Positions 2,683 to 57,572 of a DNA stretch of 64,000 bases are shown here, in pieces. The stretch spans positions 72,850,001-72,914,000 of the forward strand of contig NW_027266275.1 in assembly GCF_022045235.1 (NCBI RefSeq), given 5' to 3'. Numbering within the stretch: the first letter of the stretch is position 1; the number at the start of each line of letters is the position of its first letter. The notes beneath the pieces were generated by a model that did not search any database, had not been told where the DNA came from, and saw only the letters and a program-made list of their open reading frames with translations. Source of the stretch: Haliotis cracherodii. Its lineage: Eukaryota. Both the position numbers and the translations under genes were made by a program.

Positions 2683-2793
2683 TCAGACCGAGGAGGTGGT
2701 GGACGGCGTGGCAACAGGGATGGCTTCAGGGAGGATGCCAGGGAGAAGGATCGGGATAGCCAGGTCATCCATGTTGGGCATAACAAACACACG
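2683..2793 (-). CDS. TEX2: TEX2 last coding exon
   Basis: tttcag|RVFVMPNMDDLAIPIL...TSSV-TGA. Confidence 0.9.
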   Translation of the reverse strand, partial: RVFVMPNMDDLAIPILLPGILPEAIPVATPSTTSSV

Positions 2794-5700
2794 CTGAAAC
2801 ATACACAGTTGATCTGGTTAGTTTTATACCTGGTACAAGCATCAATCCAAACAAATTTCACAATATCAACTTATGAACTCCACCTCAACAGATGTGTACA
2901 TAAAATCACTATGATGTATTACCTTGTTGTTTCCACCTTAACACTGTTATCAGTACAAACAGCACATGGGGGACATAGAAATTAATACACAAGTGTCTGT
3001 CAGATAACATTTATCTTACAAGTTGTTTCAAAACCTATCTAACACAAGGAAGCGAGTTAGATACATTCTGAAACGAGCTACAAGATAAATGGTCTCTGAC
3101 AGGCAGGAATGCAGTAATCTGTTTCTTACATACCCCAAAATTGCACCATTTTAGCCTTCAATTGATGCATAATGTCTATTCTGATGATCGCAGTGGTGCA
3201 GTAATACGTAACACAACAACCATTATTGACCGACTTACTGCTTACTACTCATACTTAGGGTGATTCTCCATAAAACAGTCCCAGCAATATCTGTGGATCA
3301 TCAAGGTGATGATGATAATGCAAACTAGATAAGATCAACATATGTTGAACACTTTATTACAGGGATGTGAGCAGGTTTTCCTGTAAAAAGAGGAAAAGTC
3401 TAGGGGGGTCTGGGAGCATGCCCTCCCAGAAATCTTTTAAACATTTGATTGCATTTTAAGCAATTTTGTGCAGTTCACAACATTCAACATTCACACCAAG
3501 ACATGTAATAAGTCAATGGCAAAAGTCAATAAGTCAAATAAACAAGATGGCAGATGCAGTAAAATTTTCAAGTTAAATCAGTACTTTTAAAAAATCGGGC
3601 ATAGCTTCCGCGCACCTGGCTACCTGCCAGGTCTGGGAGCAATACTGCCATAAACTTCAACCCCAATCCCCCAGACACAAGGACAACTGTCACAAGCGTG
3701 CAATGTCAACTGTAAAACATCTCATTCACTTACAGGCTAAAAGACAACTTTATCTTAAAAACAAGAGTATTTACAATTTCTGTGTGATAGAAAACGTATG
3801 ATGTCCGAAAACCTATGCTGCGGAAAGCTCTGATTGAAAACAGGACAATCTGCGACGGGTGTCCGGTTTTCGATCATATTTTTTGGAGTGTTTTTTTTAA
3901 ATCTTTGATTTTATTTTACGCGAAGATGATTTTTCCCGAGGACTACTGTTTTAAAATACATGATTTTCCACGGGGATATTTCACATCCCTGTTATTAAAC
4001 ACTAGAACCATAAAGTTTCAACACAGACATTGTTGAATTCGACTGAAGCACGAGAAATGTATCCACGAATTACAATCAGTCGTCCGTCATTATCTGAACT
4101 TAGATCATAACCATGGAGTAGCTAATCACGAACTCAATATTTGATCTCCCATATGTTTGATACCAGTTATATCAAATGGGTTACTCACCCACAGGTGTGT
4201 AAATATATCAAGCACCTCCCAACCCAATCAATAGTCATTCTCTCTTAATCAAAGAATTGTTCCAAGAAAGAGAGCTCTCATAGATCAGTCAGCAAGTAAG
4301 TATCACTACTGCATTGTCTTACCTGGAACTCTACTGACAGCTTCTTCTCTATCCATTCTGTGATATAGTTGAATGTTACCTCACGCTCACCAACTTTCGG
4401 CTTAGCTGACAGCCATAATCTAGGGTTGCCACGGAAACCATACCTAAAACATGAGAGATCAATTTTAGTAACTGCAACCAACAAGAGGAATGTTTCAGTA
4501 TATGTTTGTACTGTATTTATCTAGCATGAGACAAAAACTTGCCAATACTGAAATACAACAAAAACACTTCTTTAAAACCTCTAAAGTCAGAATTTTTAAC
4601 ACAGTTTTACCTTACCACACTAGGTGTTGTTGTAAATGTAAAACATGTAAGTGTTGAAATGAATAAAGACTGGTTCTCTATCATATGAACACATCTGACA
4701 GTCTAAAAAAAAATGCCCCAAAGGGTTTATCCTTTATTAAAGTATTTGAATCCAGGGACTTTCTAATTGTAACAAGTGTTATATTTGGGATAACACTTTG
4801 TTAGTAAAGTACAGATTCTCATATCTTATAGGTTGAGTCCCAAATGAGGCTTGTGGAGTCCCATAGTCTCAGGAATTTCTATCCCTGCATTCTGGCACCA
4901 CTCAGCCACCAAGGCTTCCACAAAATGAAAGTCCGCCAACTGGTAGTCTAGATCACATACTTTGTGTACCCCTCTGACAAGTGTAAATTGGCACGGCTCC
5001 CATGGCAAAAAGCTATGAACAACACAATGCCATTTAGAAAGTGGTCAAATGTAACAAATGTTATACGATGGGATGCGATGACCTGCATCAACCAAGTCAG
5101 CGAGTCTGACCACCTGATCCTGTGAATCACCTCTTACGACAAGCAGTCTAATTCTAACCTGGATCTTCACAGGTAGTGTTGTGTACCTACCAGAACCTGT
5201 CTGTCGGTGGGGGCGGGATGTTGAGGGCCATGGTCCCCACCAGGGTCTTCACCTCCACCGTGAGAATGAGGGGCGTGTTGGATACCCCCTCCATGGCACG
5301 CTTGATATACTTATACTCAGTGGCCTGCTGGAAGTATTTACTTTGTGTGATCTTGTCCAGGTATCTCAGGAACTTCTTACTGGTGGTGCCACCTGATGCT
5401 GCACTGTAAACAAAGCATGGGGTCAGCGTCAGCATCCATTCATTTAACTGCTGATGCACTCCAACTGAATGTTTGGCAAGATATCAGTGGCTCACTTACA
5501 GTCCACAGTTTTAGTCCACTAGTCCTTAAAATGATAACATAAATCAAAGCCCCTAAAAATAGCAAATTTCTTCTAGTCTTTATGATACCTTTACTATTGG
5601 GCAGTTTGGCAAGGACTATAGGACTAAAGTACTCACGGAAATGAAAAAAACCTGTTTTTCTCAATTTAAAAATCGACACAAAGTGTTACGTAGCTGTAAA

Positions 5701-8700
5701 TACGAAATGACAAAACAACTCGAAAAGTACTAGTCTGGATTTGCTACTTTGATCTCAGTGAACAATACAGAATGTACTTTACAGGAGGTAATTTGTCGGC
5801 ACTTTCAACATTCAAAAATAAAACTAAGTCCAAATTGACATAGCAGAAACAGACTATACGCATTATGTACCTGTTCTCACCTGTCGTCAAGGTGTCATAG
5901 GTCACCTTGATCTACTTACACCTGGTTATGCCCTGTTTCACAATAGTCTGTTTTATTCACATTTTTACACACTTTTACGTCTAAAAAGGCATAAAAACAT
6001 TTGATAAACTGTATTTGTGCCACCGCCCAATTAGTTCTAATTTAGTTGTTTGAATATTTACATATTTTGTATATTAACTGCATTTATTTAAGATCTGAGG
6101 TCGAAAAAACAGTTTTTTTTCATTTCCGTGAGTACTTTAGTGAATGTTTCTACTCCACACCATAATGAGGTCTGTGTAAAGTAACAGCTCCAGTACTACT
6201 ACACTACTGACCTCTCATCAGTGGCTGGGGTCTCCTCCTCTTCGTCCGTGGAGGACTCCGCACTATCCTCCTCATCAGAGTCTGTTATGGGCGACCTGCC
6301 AACATTCAGGGTTGGAATATGTGAGTTGGGGTTAATGTTTTTCCATGGCATCTGGTATGGAGCGTTCTACCTTCCCCTAACAAATGTTTACGGTATCCAC
6401 ACAATTTCAAACACTTTTACAAATGACGCTTGTGGAGTCCCATAGACTCAGGGATTTCTATCCCTGCATTCTGGTACCTGAAATTACAGGACAAATTACT
6501 TATACAGTAGTCAGAGTGACTTGCAAGTAAACATACTCTAAAGTTCCCCCTATCCAAACACTTCGCTTGATAACAGTCTTTATCTTTTGGGTTGGGTAGT
6601 GAGAGGTGGTTTGACATGATCAATAGCAAATGTTTATCCTGATTATGAAGGAAAAACATAAAGTGGTGATCTTTAAATTCCAGTCATGTACAGCAGTATG
6701 TATGATAGACATGCACATGCACATGCACATGTACTTTTTTGGTAATTAAATTTCTATTTCTGTCCTCTTACAGAGAGGAGCTTCTGCCCAAGAGTGAGTG
6801 AGTTTGATTTTATGCAGCTTTTAGCAATATTCCAGCAATATCAGAGCGGGGGACACGAAAAACAGGCTTCATGATTTCTACCCATATGGGGATCAAACCC
6901 AGGTCATCAGTGTGATGAGCGAACACCTAACCACCAGACTACCCAACCTCCCGTCTTCTATCCTGGAAAGCCTGAATCTCCTTGGAATGAAGATTGAGAG
7001 ATGAAATGCATGACATTGGAGTTTTCAGAACAACCATTCACACACAGACACTCTCATCTGTACATGTAGTGCTGACCTTATACACAGGGTGTTGTGAGTA
7101 CGCTTACCTCTTATCAAGTGGCCGCTGTGAGACGTTATGATGTGTAGTTTTCTTCAGCTTCATCAAGTTCACCTTGGTTGCGATTGTCATCTTGAAGCCC
7201 CCATTGTAAGCAATGTCCAGGTCCACCCAGAAACCCTTCTCGTCCAGGTACGGTTTGCCTGCACGCCGGATGGCAGGGATCTCGGAGCCCATGTCAATAT
7301 CCATCACTTGCAGTTCCTCTATGAAATATGGCACCTGCAATTGAAATTCAGATTGTGTTAATGCCTCCCTCATATATAGTATAGCTGGTTGATGGCAACC
7401 TGTAAATAAAACATAATCGAGGCTGGACCAGATAAACCAGAGATTGGTATTGTCTTCAAAGTCCCAAAGTCTGCAGTACAGAAGCGTTAAGGGTGTTGAA
7501 GAATATTGCTTGTTGACTATACTATATGATATGTTATATTTGGTCATTGTGCATAGTAAATATATTCTACTCTGTCTTATTCTTCTTGATCTTTCCCTTC
7601 ATGGGCTGGTCTACTATGCTTCCGAAGGAGTCAGCTCATCTCTCCTTTAATCACTGATGTAATACTTTGTTATGATAGAATTGTAGACAAAAGTACAGTC
7701 AAACAGCACCCCCCCCCCCCCCCCCCCCCCCCCCAACACACACCCACACCCACCCATGTATCTTACTGAGGTGCTACCATCCTTCAACAGACACCACTTA
7801 CATGTATCTTACTGAGGTCCTACCATCCTTCAACAGACACCACTTACATGTATCTTACTGTGGTCCTACCATCCTTCAAAAAACCACTTACATGTATCTT
7901 ACTGAGGTCCTACCATCCTTCAACAGACACCACTTACATGTATCTTACTGTGGTCCTACCATCCTTCAAAAAACCACTTACATGTATCTTACTGAGGTCC
8001 TACCATCCTTCAACAGACACCACTTACATGTATCTTACTGTGGTCCTACCATCCTTCAACAGACACCACTTACATGTATCTTACTGAGGTCCTACTATCC
8101 CATGGGCAGACACCACTTACATGTATCTTACTGAGGTCCTACCATCCTTCAACAGACACCACTTACATGTATCTTACTGAGGTCCTACTATCCCATGGGC
8201 AGACACCACTTACATGTATCTTACTGAGGTCCTACCATCCTTCAACAGACACAACTTACATGTATCTTACTGAGGTCCAACCATCCTTCAACAGACACCA
8301 CTTACATGTATCTTACTGAGGTCCTACCATCCTTCAACAGACACCACTTACATGTATCTTACTGTGGTCCTACCATCCTTCAACAGACACCACTTACATG
8401 TATCTTACTGAGGTCCTACTATCCCATGGGCAGACACCACTTACATGTATCTTACTGAGGTCCTACCATCCTTCAACAGACACCACTTACATGTATCTTA
8501 CTGAGGTCCTACCATCCTTCAACAGACACCACTTACATGTATCTTACTGAGGTCCTACTATCCCATGGGCAGACACTACTTACATGTATCTTACTGAGGT
8601 GCTACCATCCTTCAACAAACACCACTTACATGTATCTTACTGAGGTCCTACCATCCTTCAACAGACACCACTTACATGTATCTTACTGAGGTCCTACTAT

Positions 8701-11700
8701 CCCATGGGCAGACACCACTTACATGTATCTTACTGAGGTCCTACCATCCTTCAACAGACACAACTTACATGTATCTTACTGTGGTCCTACCATCCTTCAA
8801 CAGACACCACTTACATGTATCTTACTGAGGTCCTACCATCCTTCAACAGACACCACTTACATGTATCTTACTGTGGTCCTACCATCCTTCAACAGACACC
8901 ACTTACATGTATCTTACTGAGGTCCTACTATCCCATGGGCAGACACCACTTACATGTATCTTACTGAGGTGCTACCATCCTTCAACAAACACCACTTACA
9001 TGTATCTTACTGAGGTCCTACCATCCTTCAACAGACACCACTTACATGTACCTTACTGTGGTCCAACCATCCTTTAGCAGACACTACTTACTTCTTCCCG
9101 AGGCAAGGGCGTTAACTGACTATGAAAGTCCAGTTTCCACCCTTGCCGAACTAGGCTGGAATTTCTAGACTTGATTAAAGCCCCACTAGTTTTATGTCCC
9201 TTCTATGTGCCCACATATCACCAGTCAGATTCTGACTTACATGTATTTTACTCAGTTTTCTCTGTAACTTCTCGGTCACCTTCTCAGACCACCATTTGTC
9301 TCGAAGAAAATCCCAGAATATGCGACCAACCATGGCATTGACCCAAAATAGTTGTTTATCACAGATGAGGGAACCACTGATGGTGCTCCATGTACTGTTC
9401 TCCTTCCCAGGGCTGGACACACCCGTGGTGGATGGCATGAGGCGCCCCATGTACTGTGCAAACGCCAGGAGGTCCACATCTAACGCAGATTGATTTTCTT
9501 TTGGGGGTGGTGGTACTGGTGACTCAGTTTGTGATGATGTGGACGAAATAGAATCTGTAGAACCTTGTCGTTTGTGTCTCAAAGAAGTGTCTGAATTGCT
9601 CCGTTTATGTTTGGATTGACTTGAAATTGCTTTCTTGAGATCTAGCAAGTGATTGCCTAAAGGCTTACCCATAGATGCACACACGAAACGTTTATACCAG
9701 TCTTCCTTTTCTCTTCCTGTTCGAGCGAAGAGATAGAGGATACTACTGTCACATTTCTCTTCATCAATGATTTCAAATCCGGACTCTCCATCACTGTTGG
9801 GTGTGGTGGTGTGTTTGGGAGATCCAGACACTGTAGTGGGTGCACTGGTTGACTTGGTCCCAGCCTGAGCCAGGGCCACGCAGATAGGGTACTTCTTGCT
9901 CCATATCCTCTTTTTCACTAAACCAGGGGGGAGCAGGAACACACGGCTACCCTGTAGGTCAAAATGCCGCTGGTGTATGAATGATGACGGTGTGAATGCT
10001 TCATCCCACATGGCACGTTTTGGCACCCCTATCTTTGGCCGTTGCAGTCTAAGATGTGCACCTTCGAGACTGATGTAGACAGAGTGTGTCTGGTTGATAT
10101 GGTAGTCATCGGAGCTGTATTCCAACAGCTCATTCATCCAGCCCTGGATTAAATAGACAAGACATTCTACAGCTTCAGTTGATTATTATGACAACTTTTT
10201 TTGGACACTAATTGATAAAATTTAAGGATCAGACAGAGACTGTATCTGTTTGCTGGATATAGTCTACACTTTCAATCACAAATTTGAAGCCACAGTAAAG
10301 AGCTAAAAACAAATATGCTAAATATGATTGCATAAAATTTGATAGCAAAACCTCATGTTAGTAGGGCCACATCAAACATGCAGAATTTTACCCACTAAGA
10401 GAGCAAATTGAGTATTGTAACATGTATCTTATTGTGACTCAAATATATTGAAGTGTATCAATATGCGAAATATGCTTATAATGACTTCCCAGTTAACTTT
10501 GGGCGGTCGGGTAGCCTAGTGGTTAAAGCGTTTGCTCGTCACGCCAAAGACCCGGGTTCGATTCCCGACATGGGTACAATGTGTGAAGCCCATTTCTGGT
10601 GTCCCCCGCTGTGATATTGCTGGAATATTGCAAAAAACAAAAAGCGGCGTAAAACCATACTCACTCACTCAATGTGCAAATGTGTGAATCTGTTTTAACC
10701 TGTCTGGTTGAGTTAAGGGCTGATTGATTGTATACATTTATACAGTGTTTGAAGCGGGTCCTGGGGTCCATAAGATATACTCCTATACTATATGAATCTA
10801 TGGACATTAAACCATAAAGTTGTGACAAGACCCCCTTAACTCTCATGCTTAATTTTGAACACTGTTTATTTTACACATAAGAAAGAAAATGAACAAAAGA
10901 ACTCATCACCTGTAACATTTCTACTTGCAGTGTCATTCATAACAATTAGACCTGTGAAGATCTGGGGCAGGTCTTCAGCAACCCATGCTTGTCGTAAGAG
11001 GCGACTTATGGGATCAGGTAGTGAGGCTCACTGACTTGGTTGATGCATGGCACCATATCCCAATTGCGTGGATCGATGTTCATGATGTCAATCACTGGAC
11101 TGTCTGGTCCAGCTACAATTTTGTACAGACCGCCGTCATATAGCTGGAATATTGCTGAGTGTGGCGTTAACCAACAAACATAACAATTGACTATCTTACC
11201 AAAGGGCAGAGAGTGAGGGAGTGAGCATAATTTTACGCTGCTTTTAGCAATATCAGAAATTGGCTTCACACATTGTACCCATTTGGGGAATCAAAGCCAG
11301 ACTTTCAGGGTCATCACTGATTGGACTAGCTTTAACCACTAGACTATCCCGTCAAAGACACAAGCTTGTATCAACTTACCTTATAAATACCATCATCTTT
11401 GACAGGATCCTTCATCTCTGGAAGAAGCATGGGAGGTAAATCCTCAAGCGGGGTGAGTTTGAAATCATCGTGTTGTTTTGGTGGTTGTTTGTACCAGAGA
11501 TACAGGGCCCATCCAGCCGACGTTATCATGGCCCCCATCAACAGCCCTGACACATAGGAGGGAAGGGGCATGATAAGATATGCAAACACACACACAGCTA
11601 TTGCTGCCAGCTTTTGTATGGGGACGGTCTTCTCTGCTGGCTTCACTACATCGAATGTGGTTGGTGTTTTTTTGTCACGATTTATCGAAATCTCCAGGTC

Positions 11701-12621
11701 TGGTTTTGGTCCTGGCTCTGTTGACTCCATAACAGGTTCATTATGTTCATCTTGTACTTCCACATTAAACTGCGGTTCTTCCTCCGCTGGACTGGTGTCC
11801 ATCAGAGTTGACATAGAGATAGTTGCTGATGTTACAGGTTTAGAGTTTTTCTTGACTAAACGGTTTAGTTTTGATCTCTGCCTGACAGACACATTCAGTC
11901 CAGGGCTGGAACTAAAATCCTCCATTGAGTTCATACTAAAGTATTCATCAATAACAGCTATATCATCATCTTCTTCTTCATCATCCTTTCCAACAGCACT
12001 TGTGTCTTCCTCACATTCCTGGAACTGGTCAACCAAGTCATCTTTCACAGCACCAGGTACAGCATCTTGAACAACAGGTGCCCTTTCTGGCCTAACCTCA
12101 GTCAAAATGTTCACTCTCTCAGTAACCAACATGTCATCATCAAAAGGCTGCTCATTTTCAGGGCTGGGGTTGGAGCTGGAATCTCCCGAAAATTCTTCTA
12201 TTCTTTTGCTTATTGAATCAGTTATCTTTTCTTTTGTGTCAGTTATCTTATGTCTGATATCTGAAATGATATCTTTATATTCAAAAAAGCTCTTCTTAGT
12301 GGGAGATGAGTTACCATCATCTAAGGATTTTGAATTTGGGTGAAGTTTAGTGAGTTTTGAATCTTGTATGGAGGTTGATCCTGCCCTGACGAGCTTCGGT
12401 TCCCCTGATGACCCCCTTCTTTCATTGCCGGAGCGATGGGACTTGTGGGCCTCCTCAACAACCTTATCAAACTTGCCCGTGAAGATGGTGAGATCCTCAT
12501 CATCCTCCTCCTCCAGTGCCTTGAAGCTGATGCCTATTGCCCCTGAACTCATCTTGGAGCCCAAGCTCACCTTCGGGGGAGGAGGGCGAGGGGGCTTGTG
12601 TCCCTCTCGTTTATAACTCAT
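2683..12621 (-). CDS. TEX2: Testis-expressed protein 2 (TEX2/Nvj2-like; TM hairpin + PH + SMP lipid-transfer domain), 966 aa; join(complement) 12621-11380, 10143-9241, 7334-7108, 6295-6212, 5403-5191, 4443-4323, 2793-2683
   Basis: All introns GT-AG and in phase (2901 nt). TEX2 motifs: KGWMNEL, RIWSKKYPIC, LYLFARTGREKEDWY, WVNAMVGRIFWDFLR, KLSKIHVPYFIEEL, NIPPPPTDRFWYGFR, VFVMPNMDD. Confidence 0.93.
4323..4443 (-). CDS. TEX2: TEX2 coding exon 6
   Basis: YGFRGNPRLWLSAKPKVGEREV...WIEKKLSVEFQ. Confidence 0.92.
5191..5403 (-). CDS. TEX2: TEX2 coding exon 5
   Basis: KKFLRYLDKITQSKYFQQATEY...NIPPPPTDRFW. Confidence 0.92.
5624..6140. mobile_element. Non-autonomous DNA transposon with about 35-bp TIRs
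   Basis: ctaaagtactcacggaaatgaaaaaaa ... tttttttcatttccgtgagtactttag. Confidence 0.75.
6212..6295 (-). CDS. TEX2: TEX2 coding exon 4 (acidic insert)
   Basis: SPITDSDEEDSAESSTDEEEE; phase 2/2 junctions. Confidence 0.85.
7108..7334 (-). CDS. TEX2: TEX2 coding exon 3 (SMP)
   Basis: VPYFIEELQVMDIDMG...TKVNLMKLKK; cag| and |gtaagc. Confidence 0.92.
7709..9092. repeat. C26 tract followed by a 46-bp minisatellite (about 29 copies; 44- and 47-bp variants)
   Basis: Unit cacttacatgtatcttactgaggtcctaccatccttcaacagacac. Confidence 0.95.
9241..10143 (-). CDS. TEX2: TEX2 coding exon 2 (PH domain, start of SMP)
   Basis: cag|GGC TGG ATG ... AAA ATA CAT|gtaagt; 903 nt, phase 0/0. Confidence 0.93.
10501..10670 (+). 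mobile_element. tRNA(Asp-like)-derived SINE, family A
   Basis: A box tagcctagtgg, GTC anticodon loop, B box ggttcgattcc, (ACTC)n tail; near-identical to the copies at 24400 and 43198. Degenerate minus-strand copies at about 6795-6950, 11215-11350 and 14100-14175. Confidence 0.88.
10949..11182 (+). mobile_element. SINE-like family B (other copies about 5058-5175-, 13515-13780+, 23965-24250+, 33638-33865-, 39795-39970+, 48550-48716-, 60770-60980+)
   Basis: Recurrent cagcaacccatgcttgtcgtaagaggcgact...tctggtccagac...gctggaatattgctgagtgtggcgttaa. Confidence 0.8.
11380..12621 (-). CDS. TEX2: TEX2 coding exon 1 (acidic disordered N-terminus + TM hairpin)
   Basis: 416-aa ORF; acceptor ttcag|GGAG ATG at 12625; donor AAG|gtaagt at 11380; hydrophobic LAAIAVCVFAYLIMPLPSYVSGLLMGAMITSAGWALYLW. 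Confidence 0.9.
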
Positions 12622-51592: not shown

Positions 51593-51927
51593 CACTGGCA
51601 ATATCTACGCCATGTAGCAACACTAGGGAAGTATACTGGCAATATCTACGCCATGTAGCAACACTAGGGAAGTAGACTGGCAATATCTATGCCATGTAGC
51701 AACACTAGGGAAGTAGACTGGCAATATCTACGCCATGTAGCAACACTAGGGAAGTAGACTGGCAATATCTACGCCATGTAGCAACACTAGGGAAGTAGAC
51801 TGGCAATATCTACGCCATGTAGCAACACTAGGGAAGTAGACTGGCAATATCTACGCCATGTAGCAACACCAGGGAAGTAGACTGGCAATATCTATGCGAT
51901 GTAGCAACACTAGGGAAGTAGACTGGG
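51593..51927. repeat. 41-bp minisatellite, about 8 copies
   Basis: actggcaatatctacgccatgtagcaacactagggaagtag. Confidence 0.93.
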
Positions 51928-53791
51928 AACATGATGCTTTCTCACATCGACAAGTACACACAGAGATTCACAATTTTCAGTAAAACATAGTAACAAATAT
52001 TCAAAGATAAATCTAAAAAATAGAAATAATCTTTTTTAGAAATATTGCAAAAAGTAGAAGATGAGATTTCAATACTTTGGCCCTTGTGGCAAGAAAAACA
52101 AGGAGAAGTGAGGGTCTCGGTCAGCGGCGTCAGAAGAAACTGAGTTAACGACCCCGTGAGTTTAGTGTCCCCTTCACACACCCTGTGACAGGTCGACACC
52201 CGATCATGTAAGTCAGAAGCAGCAACTGGCTGGATGCTGCTTATCCATGTGCCATCCCCAGGGCTTTGTGTCAATAATTTTCTGTCTAAACAAACGGATT
52301 AACTATGGTTACCCAAGGGTTGGTTTTTTATGAAGTTGGTCATACTACTCAACGTGTGATAGGGCTATGCTTAGTGTGGGACCTGAATGTGTGACTGGCT
52401 GCTTGGAGATGGTGTCCTACAAACAGTATCCCATATTGCCATGCATCTTGAGCATGTTCAGCTTCATGTCAAGTTAATAAAAGCAAGTGCACAAGTTGCT
52501 GTCCTCTAGTCATGTAACAGTATGTAGTTCTCCTCTCAAATGTTGAGTAGTATATAGTATTGTTATTTTCAGATGAGATACAGATATACTAACTAATTTC
52601 CTTCTGTTGAAATCAAAGTAGAAAAACCAAAAATGTAGCAATTACATCATTATTCAGTAACAATGATACCTGCTGACCTTGACCTTCCCCCCTGGACAAT
52701 GGGAGATGACCTTGCACATCCGGAGCACAGCAGGAACCAGCACACACACATTAGTACACACCAATACACACATCAATACACTTAGTACACCAGTCTACAT
52801 CTGGCAGCAACCAGCCTCAGGGTTGTCATTGGGAAGCAAGTCTTGTACAACTTTGTTACATTTTGAATGGCTAAACAAGGGAACCATTTCCACACATAGC
52901 ACTCAACATTTTGTGAATATTTGGTCCACTGATGAACAAGGTCGTACTCTGTAACAAAAGCCTTGTTCAATGTTTCCAATTGAGAGTAAGAAAAGCATTG
53001 ACCTTTTGGCAAGGTCAAGATTCACTCAAGCAACTGATACTGTGGCAAATCCTGATAGTCTACAACCCAGATACGTGGAACTTGAGTTGATCAGTAAACG
53101 TGGGTGAATCTGTTGATGAGATGATGGATGATGCTGAAATCAGGACCAATTCCGCTGTTTGTTTTCAGCCAAGATGTTCCTGTACAATGAGAGTTCGTCA
53201 GGGCAGTAGCAGGTTATAGATTCTCAGTGATGTTCAGAGCTTCTGTAAGATCAAGTTCTCACTGCTAATCAGCTGCCAATGTTCACACACAGTCAAAGGA
53301 AATCACATTTAAACAATGATGAACACACCAGATGGCTTCAGCATGCAGGCAAGCATTGCCCATACAATTCTACCAGCATCAAGGTCAAAAACATTCCCTG
53401 GTCAACAGAGTCTACAGAACTGGGGACATCACTGACAACTAACACATCATCATCACAGATGCAAAGTCAGATTTTCATGGAAGCCAAATCACTAATGCTA
53501 CATAGTCAGGGGCAACAGGACAAAAGATAGACCAGTTAGCAGTGCTTCAGATTGAAAGAGGGCCTGTTTCATTAACCCTTAAAATATCCCGAACCTCCAT
53601 TAAATGAGCAATACGTCCCCTGGCAACATATTTAATAAGCCTGCCATTTCCCCAACTAATGAGGGACTTGACCTCAGAGTAATCAAATCAACCTGAAGCG
53701 CTGCTGGATGTTTAAATCAATATTAAGTTACAGCAGTATCATACCGACAGTAACCACACATGAAGAGAATTACAAGGAAGCAGTCCAACAC

Positions 53792-54068
53792 AACGGTCAT
53801 CTGCCAGACACAGACGGTCATCTGTCAGACACAGACGGTCATCTGTCAGACACAGACGGTCATCTGTCAGACACAGACGGTCATCTGCCAAACACAGACT
53901 GCCAGACACAGACGGTCATCTGCCAGACACAGACGGTCATCTGACAGACACAGACGGTCATCTGCCAGACACAGACTGCCATACACAGACGGTCATCTGT
54001 CAGACACAGACTGTTATCTGCCAGACACAGACTGCCAGACACAGACGGTCATCTGCCAGACACAGACA
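53792..54068. repeat. 21-bp minisatellite
   Basis: cagacacagacggtcatctg(t/c). Confidence 0.9.
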
Positions 54069-54489: not shown

Positions 54490-55492
54490 AGGGCCCGGGA
54501 TCCCCTTTAAAATTGAACACTGGAAAGGAATCGGGGCATTGGTCGATCTAACAGTAAACTGGTTGAATAAGGGCCAGGATCCCCTTTAACTTTGAACACT
54601 GGAAAGGAATCGAGGCATTGGCCGATCTAACAGTAAACTGGTTGAATAAGGGCCAGGATCCCCTTTAACTTTGAACACTGGAAAGGAATCGGGGCATGGG
54701 CCGATCTAACAGTAAATGGTAAACTGGTAGAATCAGGGCATTGGCCGATCTAACAGTAAACTGGTTGAATAAGGGCCAGGATCCCCTTTAACTTTGAACA
54801 CTGGAGAGGAATCAGGGCATTGGCCGATCTAACAGTAAACTGGTTGAATAAGGGCCAGGATCCCCTTTAACTTTGAACACTGGAGAGGAATCAGGGCATT
54901 GGCCGATCTAACAGTAAACTGGTTGAATAAGGGCCAGGATCACCTTTAACTTTGAACACTGGAAAGGAATCGGGGCATGGGCCGATCTAACAGTAAATGG
55001 TAAACTGGTAGAATCAGGGCATGGGACAATCTAACAGTAAACTGGTTGAATAAGGGCCAGGATCCCCTTTAACTTTGAACACTGGAGAGGAATCGGGGCA
55101 TTGGCCGATCTAACAGTAAATTGGTTGAATAAGGGCCAGGATCACCTTTAACTTTGAACACTGGAAAGGAATCAGGGCATGGGCCGATTTAACAGTAAAC
55201 TGGCAGAATTAGGGCATGGGACAATCTAACAGTAAACTGGCAGAATAAGGGCTTGGGACGATCTAACAGTAAACTGGCAGAATAAGGGCTTGAATGATCT
55301 AACAGTAAACTGGCAGAATAGAGCTTGAACCATCTAACAGTAAACTGGCAGAATAGAGCTTGAACGATCTAACAGTAAACTGGCAGAATAAGGGCTTGAA
55401 TGATCTAACAGTAAACTGGCAGAATAAGGGCTTGAATGATCTAACAGTAAAGTGGCAGAATAAGGGCTTGGGCCAATGGAAAAGTAAACTGG
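54490..55492. repeat. Composite satellite: 79-bp units grading into 36-bp units
   Basis: Shared core gatctaacagtaaactgg; 79-bp period at 54545 and 54624. Confidence 0.9.
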
Positions 55493-56293
55493 AAGAAGCC
55501 TGTCTTCCTAATGGAGGAAATATGTCTCTTACAGATAATCTGAACATAATAAGTGTGACTCAACAAAGAAGTATTTGACTTGTGCTGATAAGAAGATATG
55601 AAGAGACTGTTGACATGGGAGCAACTGAACACAACATGCATATAAACTGTCACAGACACTCAAACACTTTTCCATGCCCTCACTTTCCCATACATTTACA
55701 AATATCCCAGATCACAAAACAGCATTATATAACCATTTGCTCAAACGATGAGGTTAACTTCCCCTATGACTAAAGGTATCAGTCTGAATTCTACACTACA
55801 CATGAAGCCCATGTAATATATTACAAGCATAATCAGTAACCAACAAAATATACAAAACAATCTCCTCGACCATTTCAAATGAGTTTCTGTTATCACATAA
55901 CATTTCAAAGCCAATAATTCACATAAAATCAATTCCATAAAACGTCTGTGAAAGAGGCATTCTTGTAATCATGTGGTTGAGCATGTTAAATAAATGAAGA
56001 AAGAAAAACATCTAAAAATATATGGCTTGTAATCATGAAAACAGATACAATGGTAATGATGGACATTGACAGATGGTTATGATGTACAGCAGTATGTGTT
56101 CTGCCAATATACCAAGGCCACTACTGCACTAGCACAAACTGTTTAGCTTAGAGAAATGTTTACACTCACAGCCATTATAGCACTTAAGCAAACTTTGCTA
56201 ACAAACATTATGAAAGAATGATAATGATTATACAAAATAGTTTTCCATTTCTTGACATTTATGTTGGAGTTATGCACTGTGTGACCTTAGAAT

Positions 56294-56455
56294 GGGGCAC
56301 AGGTGGATATCCAGATATGCAACAGCATGTGGCACAGGTGAATATCCAGGTATGCAACAGCATGCGGCACAGGTGAATATCCAGGTATGCAACAGCATGT
56401 GGCACAGGTGAATATCCAGGTATGCAACAGCATATGGCACAGGTGGATCTCCAGC
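56294..56455. repeat. 35-bp repeat, about 4.5 copies, just downstream of the ASB stop
   Basis: ggcacaggtgaatatccaggtatgcaacagcatgt. Confidence 0.88.
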
Positions 56456-56465
56456 TATCAGGGCA

Positions 56466-57572
56466 TCATCTGTTGAGGAGCAGGTAGTGTTTGAGACTTG
56501 ATGGCAGTGGGAGACTGTCAACACTCTGCAAAAAGTTCTTACCATCAGACTGTTTAATAATGTGAGATCGGAGAACACACTTGCATTGATGACGGAGGGA
56601 GTGGGGTGTTTTGGATTCCATGTCCAAGAGTTCAACAATATCTTCATCAATGTCACTGTTTTGGAGCGCCATACGCACTGAACGGATCTGTGGAGGTGAT
56701 ACCCCAGCCATTAACACAAGTTTGATTATTTCCACATTCCCATGCTTGGCAGCCCAGAACAAAGGAGACTGCTCTGCGGGACAGTAGGGCCCCACGCCAC
56801 CCAGACTGCTGCCATGCACAATCAGGGTCTTGAGTATTATTGAACTCACTCTGTACATAAATGCGGCAAGAAGGGGTGTACAGTTATACTTATCCATCTT
56901 GTTGACACTAGCACCATTCGCAATAAGATACTGTACAAGATCAGGCATCTGCTGTCGTGATGCCACCCACAATGCAGTATGGCCCATGTTGTCTGCAGCA
57001 TCAATATCTGCACCTTGTGACACCAGGGTGACGACACCCTCGAGGAAGTGCATCCGACAGGACGTCACAACAGGAGGTTCAACACGACCTAAATGGTCTT
57101 TGCTGCTCATGTTCAAGTCAATATTTTTTGTCTTCTCATGGTGTCTCATAAATAAATGAAATATGTCAAAATGTCTCTTGTAGAGAGTCAAAGATAGTGG
57201 AGTAATATCTTTGATATGATAGTTCAGATCCAAATCCGGATAAGACAAAAGCAAGTTGCGAACAGATGTTAAACATCCTTCTTCAATTGCAGAAAACAAA
57301 TCATATGACAAGTAAGACTGGACATAACGGTTGGAAGTCTCAAATGTTGTTTGTGTGCTGTTTGGTGATTTGCACTGTACCTCTTTGTGCACTGCAGCTT
57401 TTGCTACAATGGTTGCCTTTGCAACTATGGCTGCGATTTGTGACATTGTGGTAGAATACATGTATAGAAGGGTCACAATAGGGCCTAACAGATTCTTGTT
57501 GGACAGACTTGGATTTACCTTTTGCCAACTCCTCTCTACAGTTTCAATGGTGTCATTTTCATTGTCCCACAT
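56466..57572 (-). CDS. Ankyrin repeat and SOCS box protein (ASB-like Cullin-5 adaptor), intronless CDS
   Basis: 368-aa ORF with ankyrin motifs (ITPLSL, GADIDAADNMGHTALWVA, GASVNKMDKYNCTPLLAA, QSPLFWAAKHGN) and a C-terminal SOCS box PHSLRHQCKCVLR...LPLPSSLKHYLL. The true start may be an internal Met. Confidence 0.9.
   Translation of the reverse strand: MWDNENDTIETVERSWQKVNPSLSNKNLLGPIVTLLYMYSTTMSQIAAIVAKATIVAKAAVHKEVQCKSPNSTQTTFETSNRYVQSYLSYDLFSAIEEGCLTSVRNLLLSYPDLDLNYHIKDITPLSLTLYKRHFDIFHLFMRHHEKTKNIDLNMSSKDHLGRVEPPVVTSCRMHFLEGVVTLVSQGADIDAADNMGHTALWVASRQQMPDLVQYLIANGASVNKMDKYNCTPLLAAFMYRVSSIILKTLIVHGSSLGGVGPYCPAEQSPLFWAAKHGNVEIIKLVLMAGVSPPQIRSVRMALQNSDIDEDIVELLDMESKTPHSLRHQCKCVLRSHIIKQSDGKNFLQSVDSLPLPSSLKHYLLLNR

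Follow-up and report, generated by a model that had tools for sequence, protein, structure and literature searches.

A junction-spanning minisatellite, probably separated from its splice donor by a MITE, in a TEX2 intron of the abalone Haliotis cracherodii

Minisatellites whose first unit lies across an exon-intron boundary are known from several human genes, namely F7 (intron 7, 37-bp unit), the interferon-inducible gene 6-16 (intron 2, 25 pseudo-sites), CBS (intron 13, 31 bp), LMNB2 (100 bp) and PDGF (intron 4, 81 bp) (PMC1557585). In F7, the best-studied case, identical downstream pseudo-donors stay silent, while 6-16 and CBS do make use of the pseudo-donors closest to the real site (PMC1557585). 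In amphioxus, 'mirage' minisatellites have been described in Adh3 and in the globins BflGb6 and BflGb9 as tandem duplications of an intron-exon boundary. They keep splice signals in many units, appear not to disturb splicing and occur several to a genome (PMC3087553).

Here we describe an array in a TEX2 intron of Haliotis cracherodii, located in a window of 64,000 nucleotides (contig NW_027266275.1, positions 72,850,001 to 72,914,000) whose coordinates are used throughout. Once an inserted MITE is discounted, the TEX2 array belongs to the known class of junction-spanning minisatellites exemplified by F7, CBS, 6-16 and the mirages. Quite probably it is a mirage-type minisatellite that arose by tandem duplication, was later split from its donor by the MITE and is silent in splicing. 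A first-pass annotation of the same DNA did not recognise the array as a member of a class already described. Our literature search, whose coverage excluded most subscription journals, returned no fitting paper on an abalone case or on a MITE-interrupted junction minisatellite.

The gene name TEX2 was assigned from homologues, and tblastn placed six coding exons of the gene. The exon of interest, which ends in LSKIH, was delimited with the TEX2-like protein of Haliotis asinina, to which it is 92% identical, and occupies positions 9241 to 10143 of the minus strand (its start is approximate to within 2-3 nt). All features of this locus given below lie on that strand. The true 5' splice site, CAT/GTAAGT (9235 to 9243), is cut between 9241 and 9240, a placement that draws on the sequence, on the continuity of homologous proteins and on a contig of run X7. 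The following exon (VPYFIEEL..., 7107 to 7334) is preceded by an acceptor AG at 7336-7335. The two exons are thus separated by a phase-0 intron of 1906 nt, between the donor at 9241/9240 and the acceptor before 7334, and in homologues the protein runs LSKIH-VPYF. A match to the motif was found in 115 of the 120 homologues examined, and LSKIH-like ends with H at the last codon of the exon were present in 39 of these 115, among them nearly all of the molluscs listed. Since this exon end is shared across molluscs, the exon predates the array and the direction of copying was from exon to array. Pfam searches with four exon pieces gave only a weak PH_SMPa match, for one of the four. Pyrimidine content did not discriminate cryptic acceptors inside the array, being 0.55 at the true acceptor and 0.55-0.6 at the highest-scoring AGs of the first 1490 intron bases.

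The array extends from 7755 to 9091 and was delimited by TRF (period 46, 29.0 copies, 90% matches), by splitting into units and by its occurrence at a single genomic locus. It comprises 29 units of 44-47 bp in 10 variants, a tandem arrangement whose unit lies inside the 10-160-bp range of minisatellites. Each 46-bp unit combines 31 nt of intron start with 15 nt of exon end, and therefore reproduces, from the adjacent junction of its own host gene, both the end of the exon and the splice donor. The exon-derived part measures only about 15 nt, and the ungapped match stops there. Compared on the minus strand with the true junction (-15 to +6), 21 of the 29 units match at 19 of 21 positions, a figure that the first-pass annotation had given and that holds for these units; another six, which carry CAC instead of CTC, match at 18, and the first unit matches at 17. 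The last unit (7756) lacks a donor, the bases after it being GGGTGG. The odd units of the array are thus the boundary ones, units 1 and 29. Pseudo-donors reading CAT/GTAAGT occur in 28 units, and a single GAA/GTAAGT stands at the start of the array (9091). Consequently, of the roughly 29 decoy donors matching the real one that had been annotated, the 29 units stand and the number of exact decoys becomes 28. Outside the array, GTAAGT occurs 17 and 18 times on the two strands. Only 9 substitution types set the 46-nt units apart from the commonest unit. Beyond the array lies a G-rich tail (7709 to 7755), which ends in a G26 tract (7709-7734) and in which local alignment likely identifies a decayed final intron half-unit; this half-unit matches the unit at 10 of 11 positions, with a weak p of about 0.02 against 2000 shuffles in one of six comparisons.

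Searches of the 1.18 Gb genome place the unit at this locus. An 18-nt junction pattern gave 28 matches, all at TEX2 (27 units and the true donor), and its reversed control gave 2 matches genome-wide. The intronic part of the unit gave 16 matches, all inside the array, with 0 for the control, and three units used as DNA queries, in a search that passes over very common words, returned the TEX2 locus only. The exon part matches the exon at 13 of 15 positions. With shuffles of the 90 bases at the exon's end as control, this match has a p of about 0.001, and the exon part alone set against shuffles of the whole exon has a p of about 0.1, which indicates that the signal is carried by position at the junction. 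Together, these sequence comparisons support derivation of the unit from the adjacent TEX2 exon-intron junction. GTAAGT is a common motif, and a dispersed repeat unit could in principle resemble the junction by chance. The finding of both the 18-nt pattern (against 2 control matches) and the unit at one locus refutes this explanation, to which we assign a negligible probability. The proposal of the first-pass annotation that the array arose from a copy of the junction is supported by the one-locus motif and by the mollusc-conserved exon end; that annotation had named occurrence of the unit at many unrelated loci as the observation that would speak against such an origin, and we found it at this locus alone. 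Both differences between unit and exon are synonymous, and the array may preserve an older state of the exon. Copying of the intronic part of the unit from exon sequence further upstream was also considered and is unsupported (p of 0.13 and 0.37).

At present the donor and the array are 149 nt apart, and nearly all of this gap (9232-9091) is transposon; 8 intron bases separate the element from the donor. On sequence grounds the spacer is a MITE fragment, namely the right-hand 142 nt (9091 to 9232) of an element of about 530 bp whose left approximately 390 nt are missing, as established from genome search, family ends and target duplication. A genome search with the spacer produced 3031 candidate places; among the 40 that were scored, 9232-9093 (query positions 14-153) matched at 78-93%. 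Furthermore, when public contigs were placed on 9040-10200, thousands from three runs piled onto the spacer. Comparison of 29 copies defined an element that measures about 530 bp and has long inverted ends, both of which were present in 22 of the 29 at a distance of 383-553 bp. Identity between the flanks of these copies peaks at a length of 9 bp (mean 0.62, with 4 exact and 12 at 7 of 9 or better), other lengths giving 0.18-0.34. The family is thus short, present in high copy number, bounded by terminal inverted repeats and flanked by target duplications of fixed length; in the TEX2 copy, the left side of the duplication keeps 5 of 9 bases. The putative right copy, TAAGTAGTG (9082 to 9090), was assigned from the target duplication length of the family; the opening 5 nt of it are found again at 9239-9235, to the left of the fragment, where they are intron bases +2 to +6. 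The final base of the MITE is the G of the first GTAAGT of the array. By the 9-bp length of its target duplications the element may be Mutator-like. It resembles the MITEs that combine such duplications with long terminal inverted repeats in its length of about 530 bp, its inverted ends and its very high copy number, but differs from them in that its ends read CA...TG. The first-pass annotation overlooked the MITE nature of the gap between donor and array, which is not unique sequence. We had also considered intron bases 1-47 as a decayed unit, an idea that was dropped since the sequence from 9232 onward is MITE.

The position of the element suggests a chronology of the locus. From the last G of the MITE to the next CAT/GT there are exactly 46 nt, so that removal of the MITE brings unit 1 into register with the true donor. 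Since plain tandem duplication cannot yield the unit with a MITE already at +2, the array is likely older than the insertion. We therefore propose that exon bases -15 to -1 and intron bases +1 to +31, about 46 bp across the boundary, would have been duplicated first, and that the array would have been amplified and turned over through the slippage or unequal exchange usual for minisatellites. The MITE would then have inserted after intron base +1, where its 9-bp target duplication would have kept the real GTAAGT whole and rebuilt a second one downstream. A later deletion would have removed the left approximately 390 nt of the element together with four target bases. Under this reconstructed history, the first unit, which the 149-nt gap now holds away from the boundary, spans it once the MITE fragment is discounted. 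The five of nine target bases that remain on the left equal the donor consensus and are weak proof of this history, and we estimate that roughly 10 of 46 MITE landing phases would look equally in register. It is possible that the MITE entered a later unit and that a larger deletion followed; whichever unit it entered, the array most likely began at the true donor. No MITE-free allele of the TEX2 intron was seen.

The geometry implied by the first-pass annotation differs from this history in that a templated copy of the junction would have been detached from the start, about 150 nt downstream, with the MITE landing in or beside it independently. Donor and array do stand apart now, the left target copy is incomplete, and the deletion conceals the original spacer. 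However, the spacer at 9232-9091 is almost wholly MITE, just 8 intron bases lie between donor and element, and the phase of the array continues that of the true donor exactly. We consequently regard a detached copy as very unlikely and favor duplication across the boundary.

Two related organisms, B and C, allow the insertion to be dated in relative terms. Their DNA contigs join the exon to the MITE fragment and, over about 1060 nt, show 11 and 13 differences, respectively, which places both insertion and truncation before their split from H. cracherodii. The unit is present at high depth in the DNA runs of both organisms, and no contig bridging flank and array was found in either. Rough lower bounds on the number of units are at least about 47 in B (8 of 22 contigs) and at least about 85 in C (8 of 11 contigs), compared to 29 here; these bounds are word arithmetic on the listed contigs with k=31 assumed and single-copy depth, and contig depth is not equivalent to copy number. 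A change at unit position 29 is dominant in B and C and appears in four of six reads of the raw DNA run X20 (six reads on units being too few for copy number), and it is absent from the 29 units described here. A donor variant, A to G at +3, accounts for roughly one third of the depth in C. As far as sequence comparison goes, the unit changes among organisms are ordinary minisatellite turnover. Both relatives have AGG at the codon ending at 9259, which would lengthen the match of the unit by a few bases, a weak indication.

Every decoy-spliced or intron-retaining message must read through the true donor, and any such transcript meets the in-frame TAA inside the MITE fragment (9177-9175). The annotated stop at 9175 and G26 tract are as first described, and so is the consequence that use of a decoy would include the stop. 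Were the array to abut the donor directly, a stop would still be met at the sixth codon of unit 1. In run X7, which we take to be RNA by guess, contig 24 (depth 45.4) matches 9239-10145 perfectly and parts from the genomic sequence at either edge of the exon. Its two extra bases are GT, which also start the next exon, and by the homologous protein it presumably joins the acceptor at 7334. Over the donor, the bin has a depth of 40.7, which equals 45.4 x 35/39; contig 24 explains all of this depth, leaving no room for a read-through contig. Indeed, no contig in X7 reads past the true donor, contigs being prone to drop rare forms degraded by NMD. The only spliced contig is thus at the true donor, in one likely RNA run and in a type of data that misses rare forms. 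In run X8, also likely RNA, the repeat is present as a single 76-nt contig on the unit (depth 2.8), which equals one 46-bp cycle plus 30 and fits pure repeat if k=31 is assumed; 14 of its letters lie outside the stretch, and it has no loose end leading from unit to exon. The contigs of the one likely RNA run X7 make it quite probable that the decoy donors are silent. In the scheme proposed above, the most upstream donor would win and any leak to decoys would be cleared by nonsense-mediated decay.

The role that had initially been suggested for the array, as a U1 sink, a source of NMD isoforms or a copy-number control of splicing, found no positive support, given that X7 shows the spliced form only and that the F7 pseudo-donors are silent; it found no refutation either, since contigs lose scarce products that NMD degrades. 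G-runs can enhance nearby donors, and in a functional array the pseudo-donors likeliest to be used would be the first ones, or the last one beside the G-run. Some pseudo-donors would then be used at a rate dependent on copy number, and NMD-targeted isoforms would tune TEX2 output. The donors are intact in 28 of 29 units and the array is kept in three organisms with apparent length differences. However, only 9 substitution types occur, too few independent changes to show either purging or retention of donors, and homogenisation alone explains donor integrity, which is consequently uninformative on function. The absence of a read-through contig in X7, and in X8 of any loose end that leads out of the unit into the exon, also argues against decoy use. 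The sole donor variant in the relatives, A to G at +3, is within the consensus guragu, and proximal pseudo-sites are used in human 6-16 and CBS; against this, F7 pseudo-sites identical to the real one are silent, and use falls with distance (PMC1557585). Overall, we consider a functional decoy array unlikely. An elaborate version, in which a length-variable bank of decoys (29 in this genome and probably between 50 and more than 85 in the sister organisms) would drain TEX2 pre-mRNA into NMD by copy number and the MITE in the real donor would be a spacer resetting the leak, so as to form a transposon-tuned rheostat kept across several abalone species, strikes us as highly improbable. If decoy use did scale with copy number, the locus would serve as a natural experiment on how a 5' splice site is chosen when 28 identical competitors lie at a distance.

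The TEX2 array is accompanied by a second one in the window. For this test tblastn gave the positions of 15 donors in IRE1, where those with unplaceable exon ends were left out, and of 5 in TEX2. Echoes within 1.5 kb were found for 2 of these 20, compared to 1 of 346 control pairs. The IRE1 donor at 36254 has a 28-bp array of 5 copies in register with the donor itself. This frequency fits the view that such arrays are common and tolerated in repeat-rich invertebrate genomes. The TEX2 array, in turn, represents a clean mollusc example with a readable three-step history, which would comprise a junction duplication, a MITE insertion rescued by its own target duplication, and a deletion.

The array is like those of human F7, 6-16, CBS, LMNB2 and PDGF in that its unit joins exon end and intron start, so that copies of the exact donor follow one another along the intron. 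The human boundary minisatellites are also similar in unit size and copy number, and length may vary here as well. It is unlike the human cases in that a truncated MITE precedes unit 1, which today does not lie across the boundary, and in that its host is a mollusc, without known link to disease or expression. With the amphioxus mirages, it shares the duplication of a boundary, the kept splice signals and the divergent boundary units; it differs from them in phylum, in the transposon interruption and in size, with at least 29 units compared to 3-6 in BflGb6.

Minisatellites are dense across the whole window, with 59 rows in the TRF output, including arrays at 1-489, 536-1747, 26324-27718, 28757-29526, 35272-36018, 51594-51926, 53788-54067 and 54490-55470. 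A second junction-spanning minisatellite, recovered by TRF and by the donor echo comparison, lies in IRE1 (36240-36386, plus strand); this array of five 28-bp units begins at the donor at 36254, in register, and GTGAG is kept in three of its four downstream copies.

The MITE family, a fragment of which separates the true TEX2 donor from the 46-bp array, is about 530 bp long, has CA...TG ends and a 9-bp target duplication, and is highly abundant in DNA runs and in runs guessed to be RNA-like from three organism labels. The 3' end of the same TEX2 intron is partly occupied by a lower-copy dispersed repeat (7470-7700; 62 candidate places, 72-86% identity). Since a TRF array of twelve 43-bp units (2148-2669) starts about 20 nt past the point where the coding match to TEX2 stops, it likely lies within the 3' UTR.

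An open frame of 368 codons on the minus strand (56466-57572) reads, by eye, like an ankyrin-repeat and SOCS-box protein, and a TRF array of 4.8 35-bp units (56292-56458) lies a short way beyond its end.

TEX2 (2690-12621, minus strand) and IRE1 (ERN1; 19489-40903, plus strand) form a head-to-head pair. They are likewise adjacent in the human genome, so that this arrangement would be old synteny.
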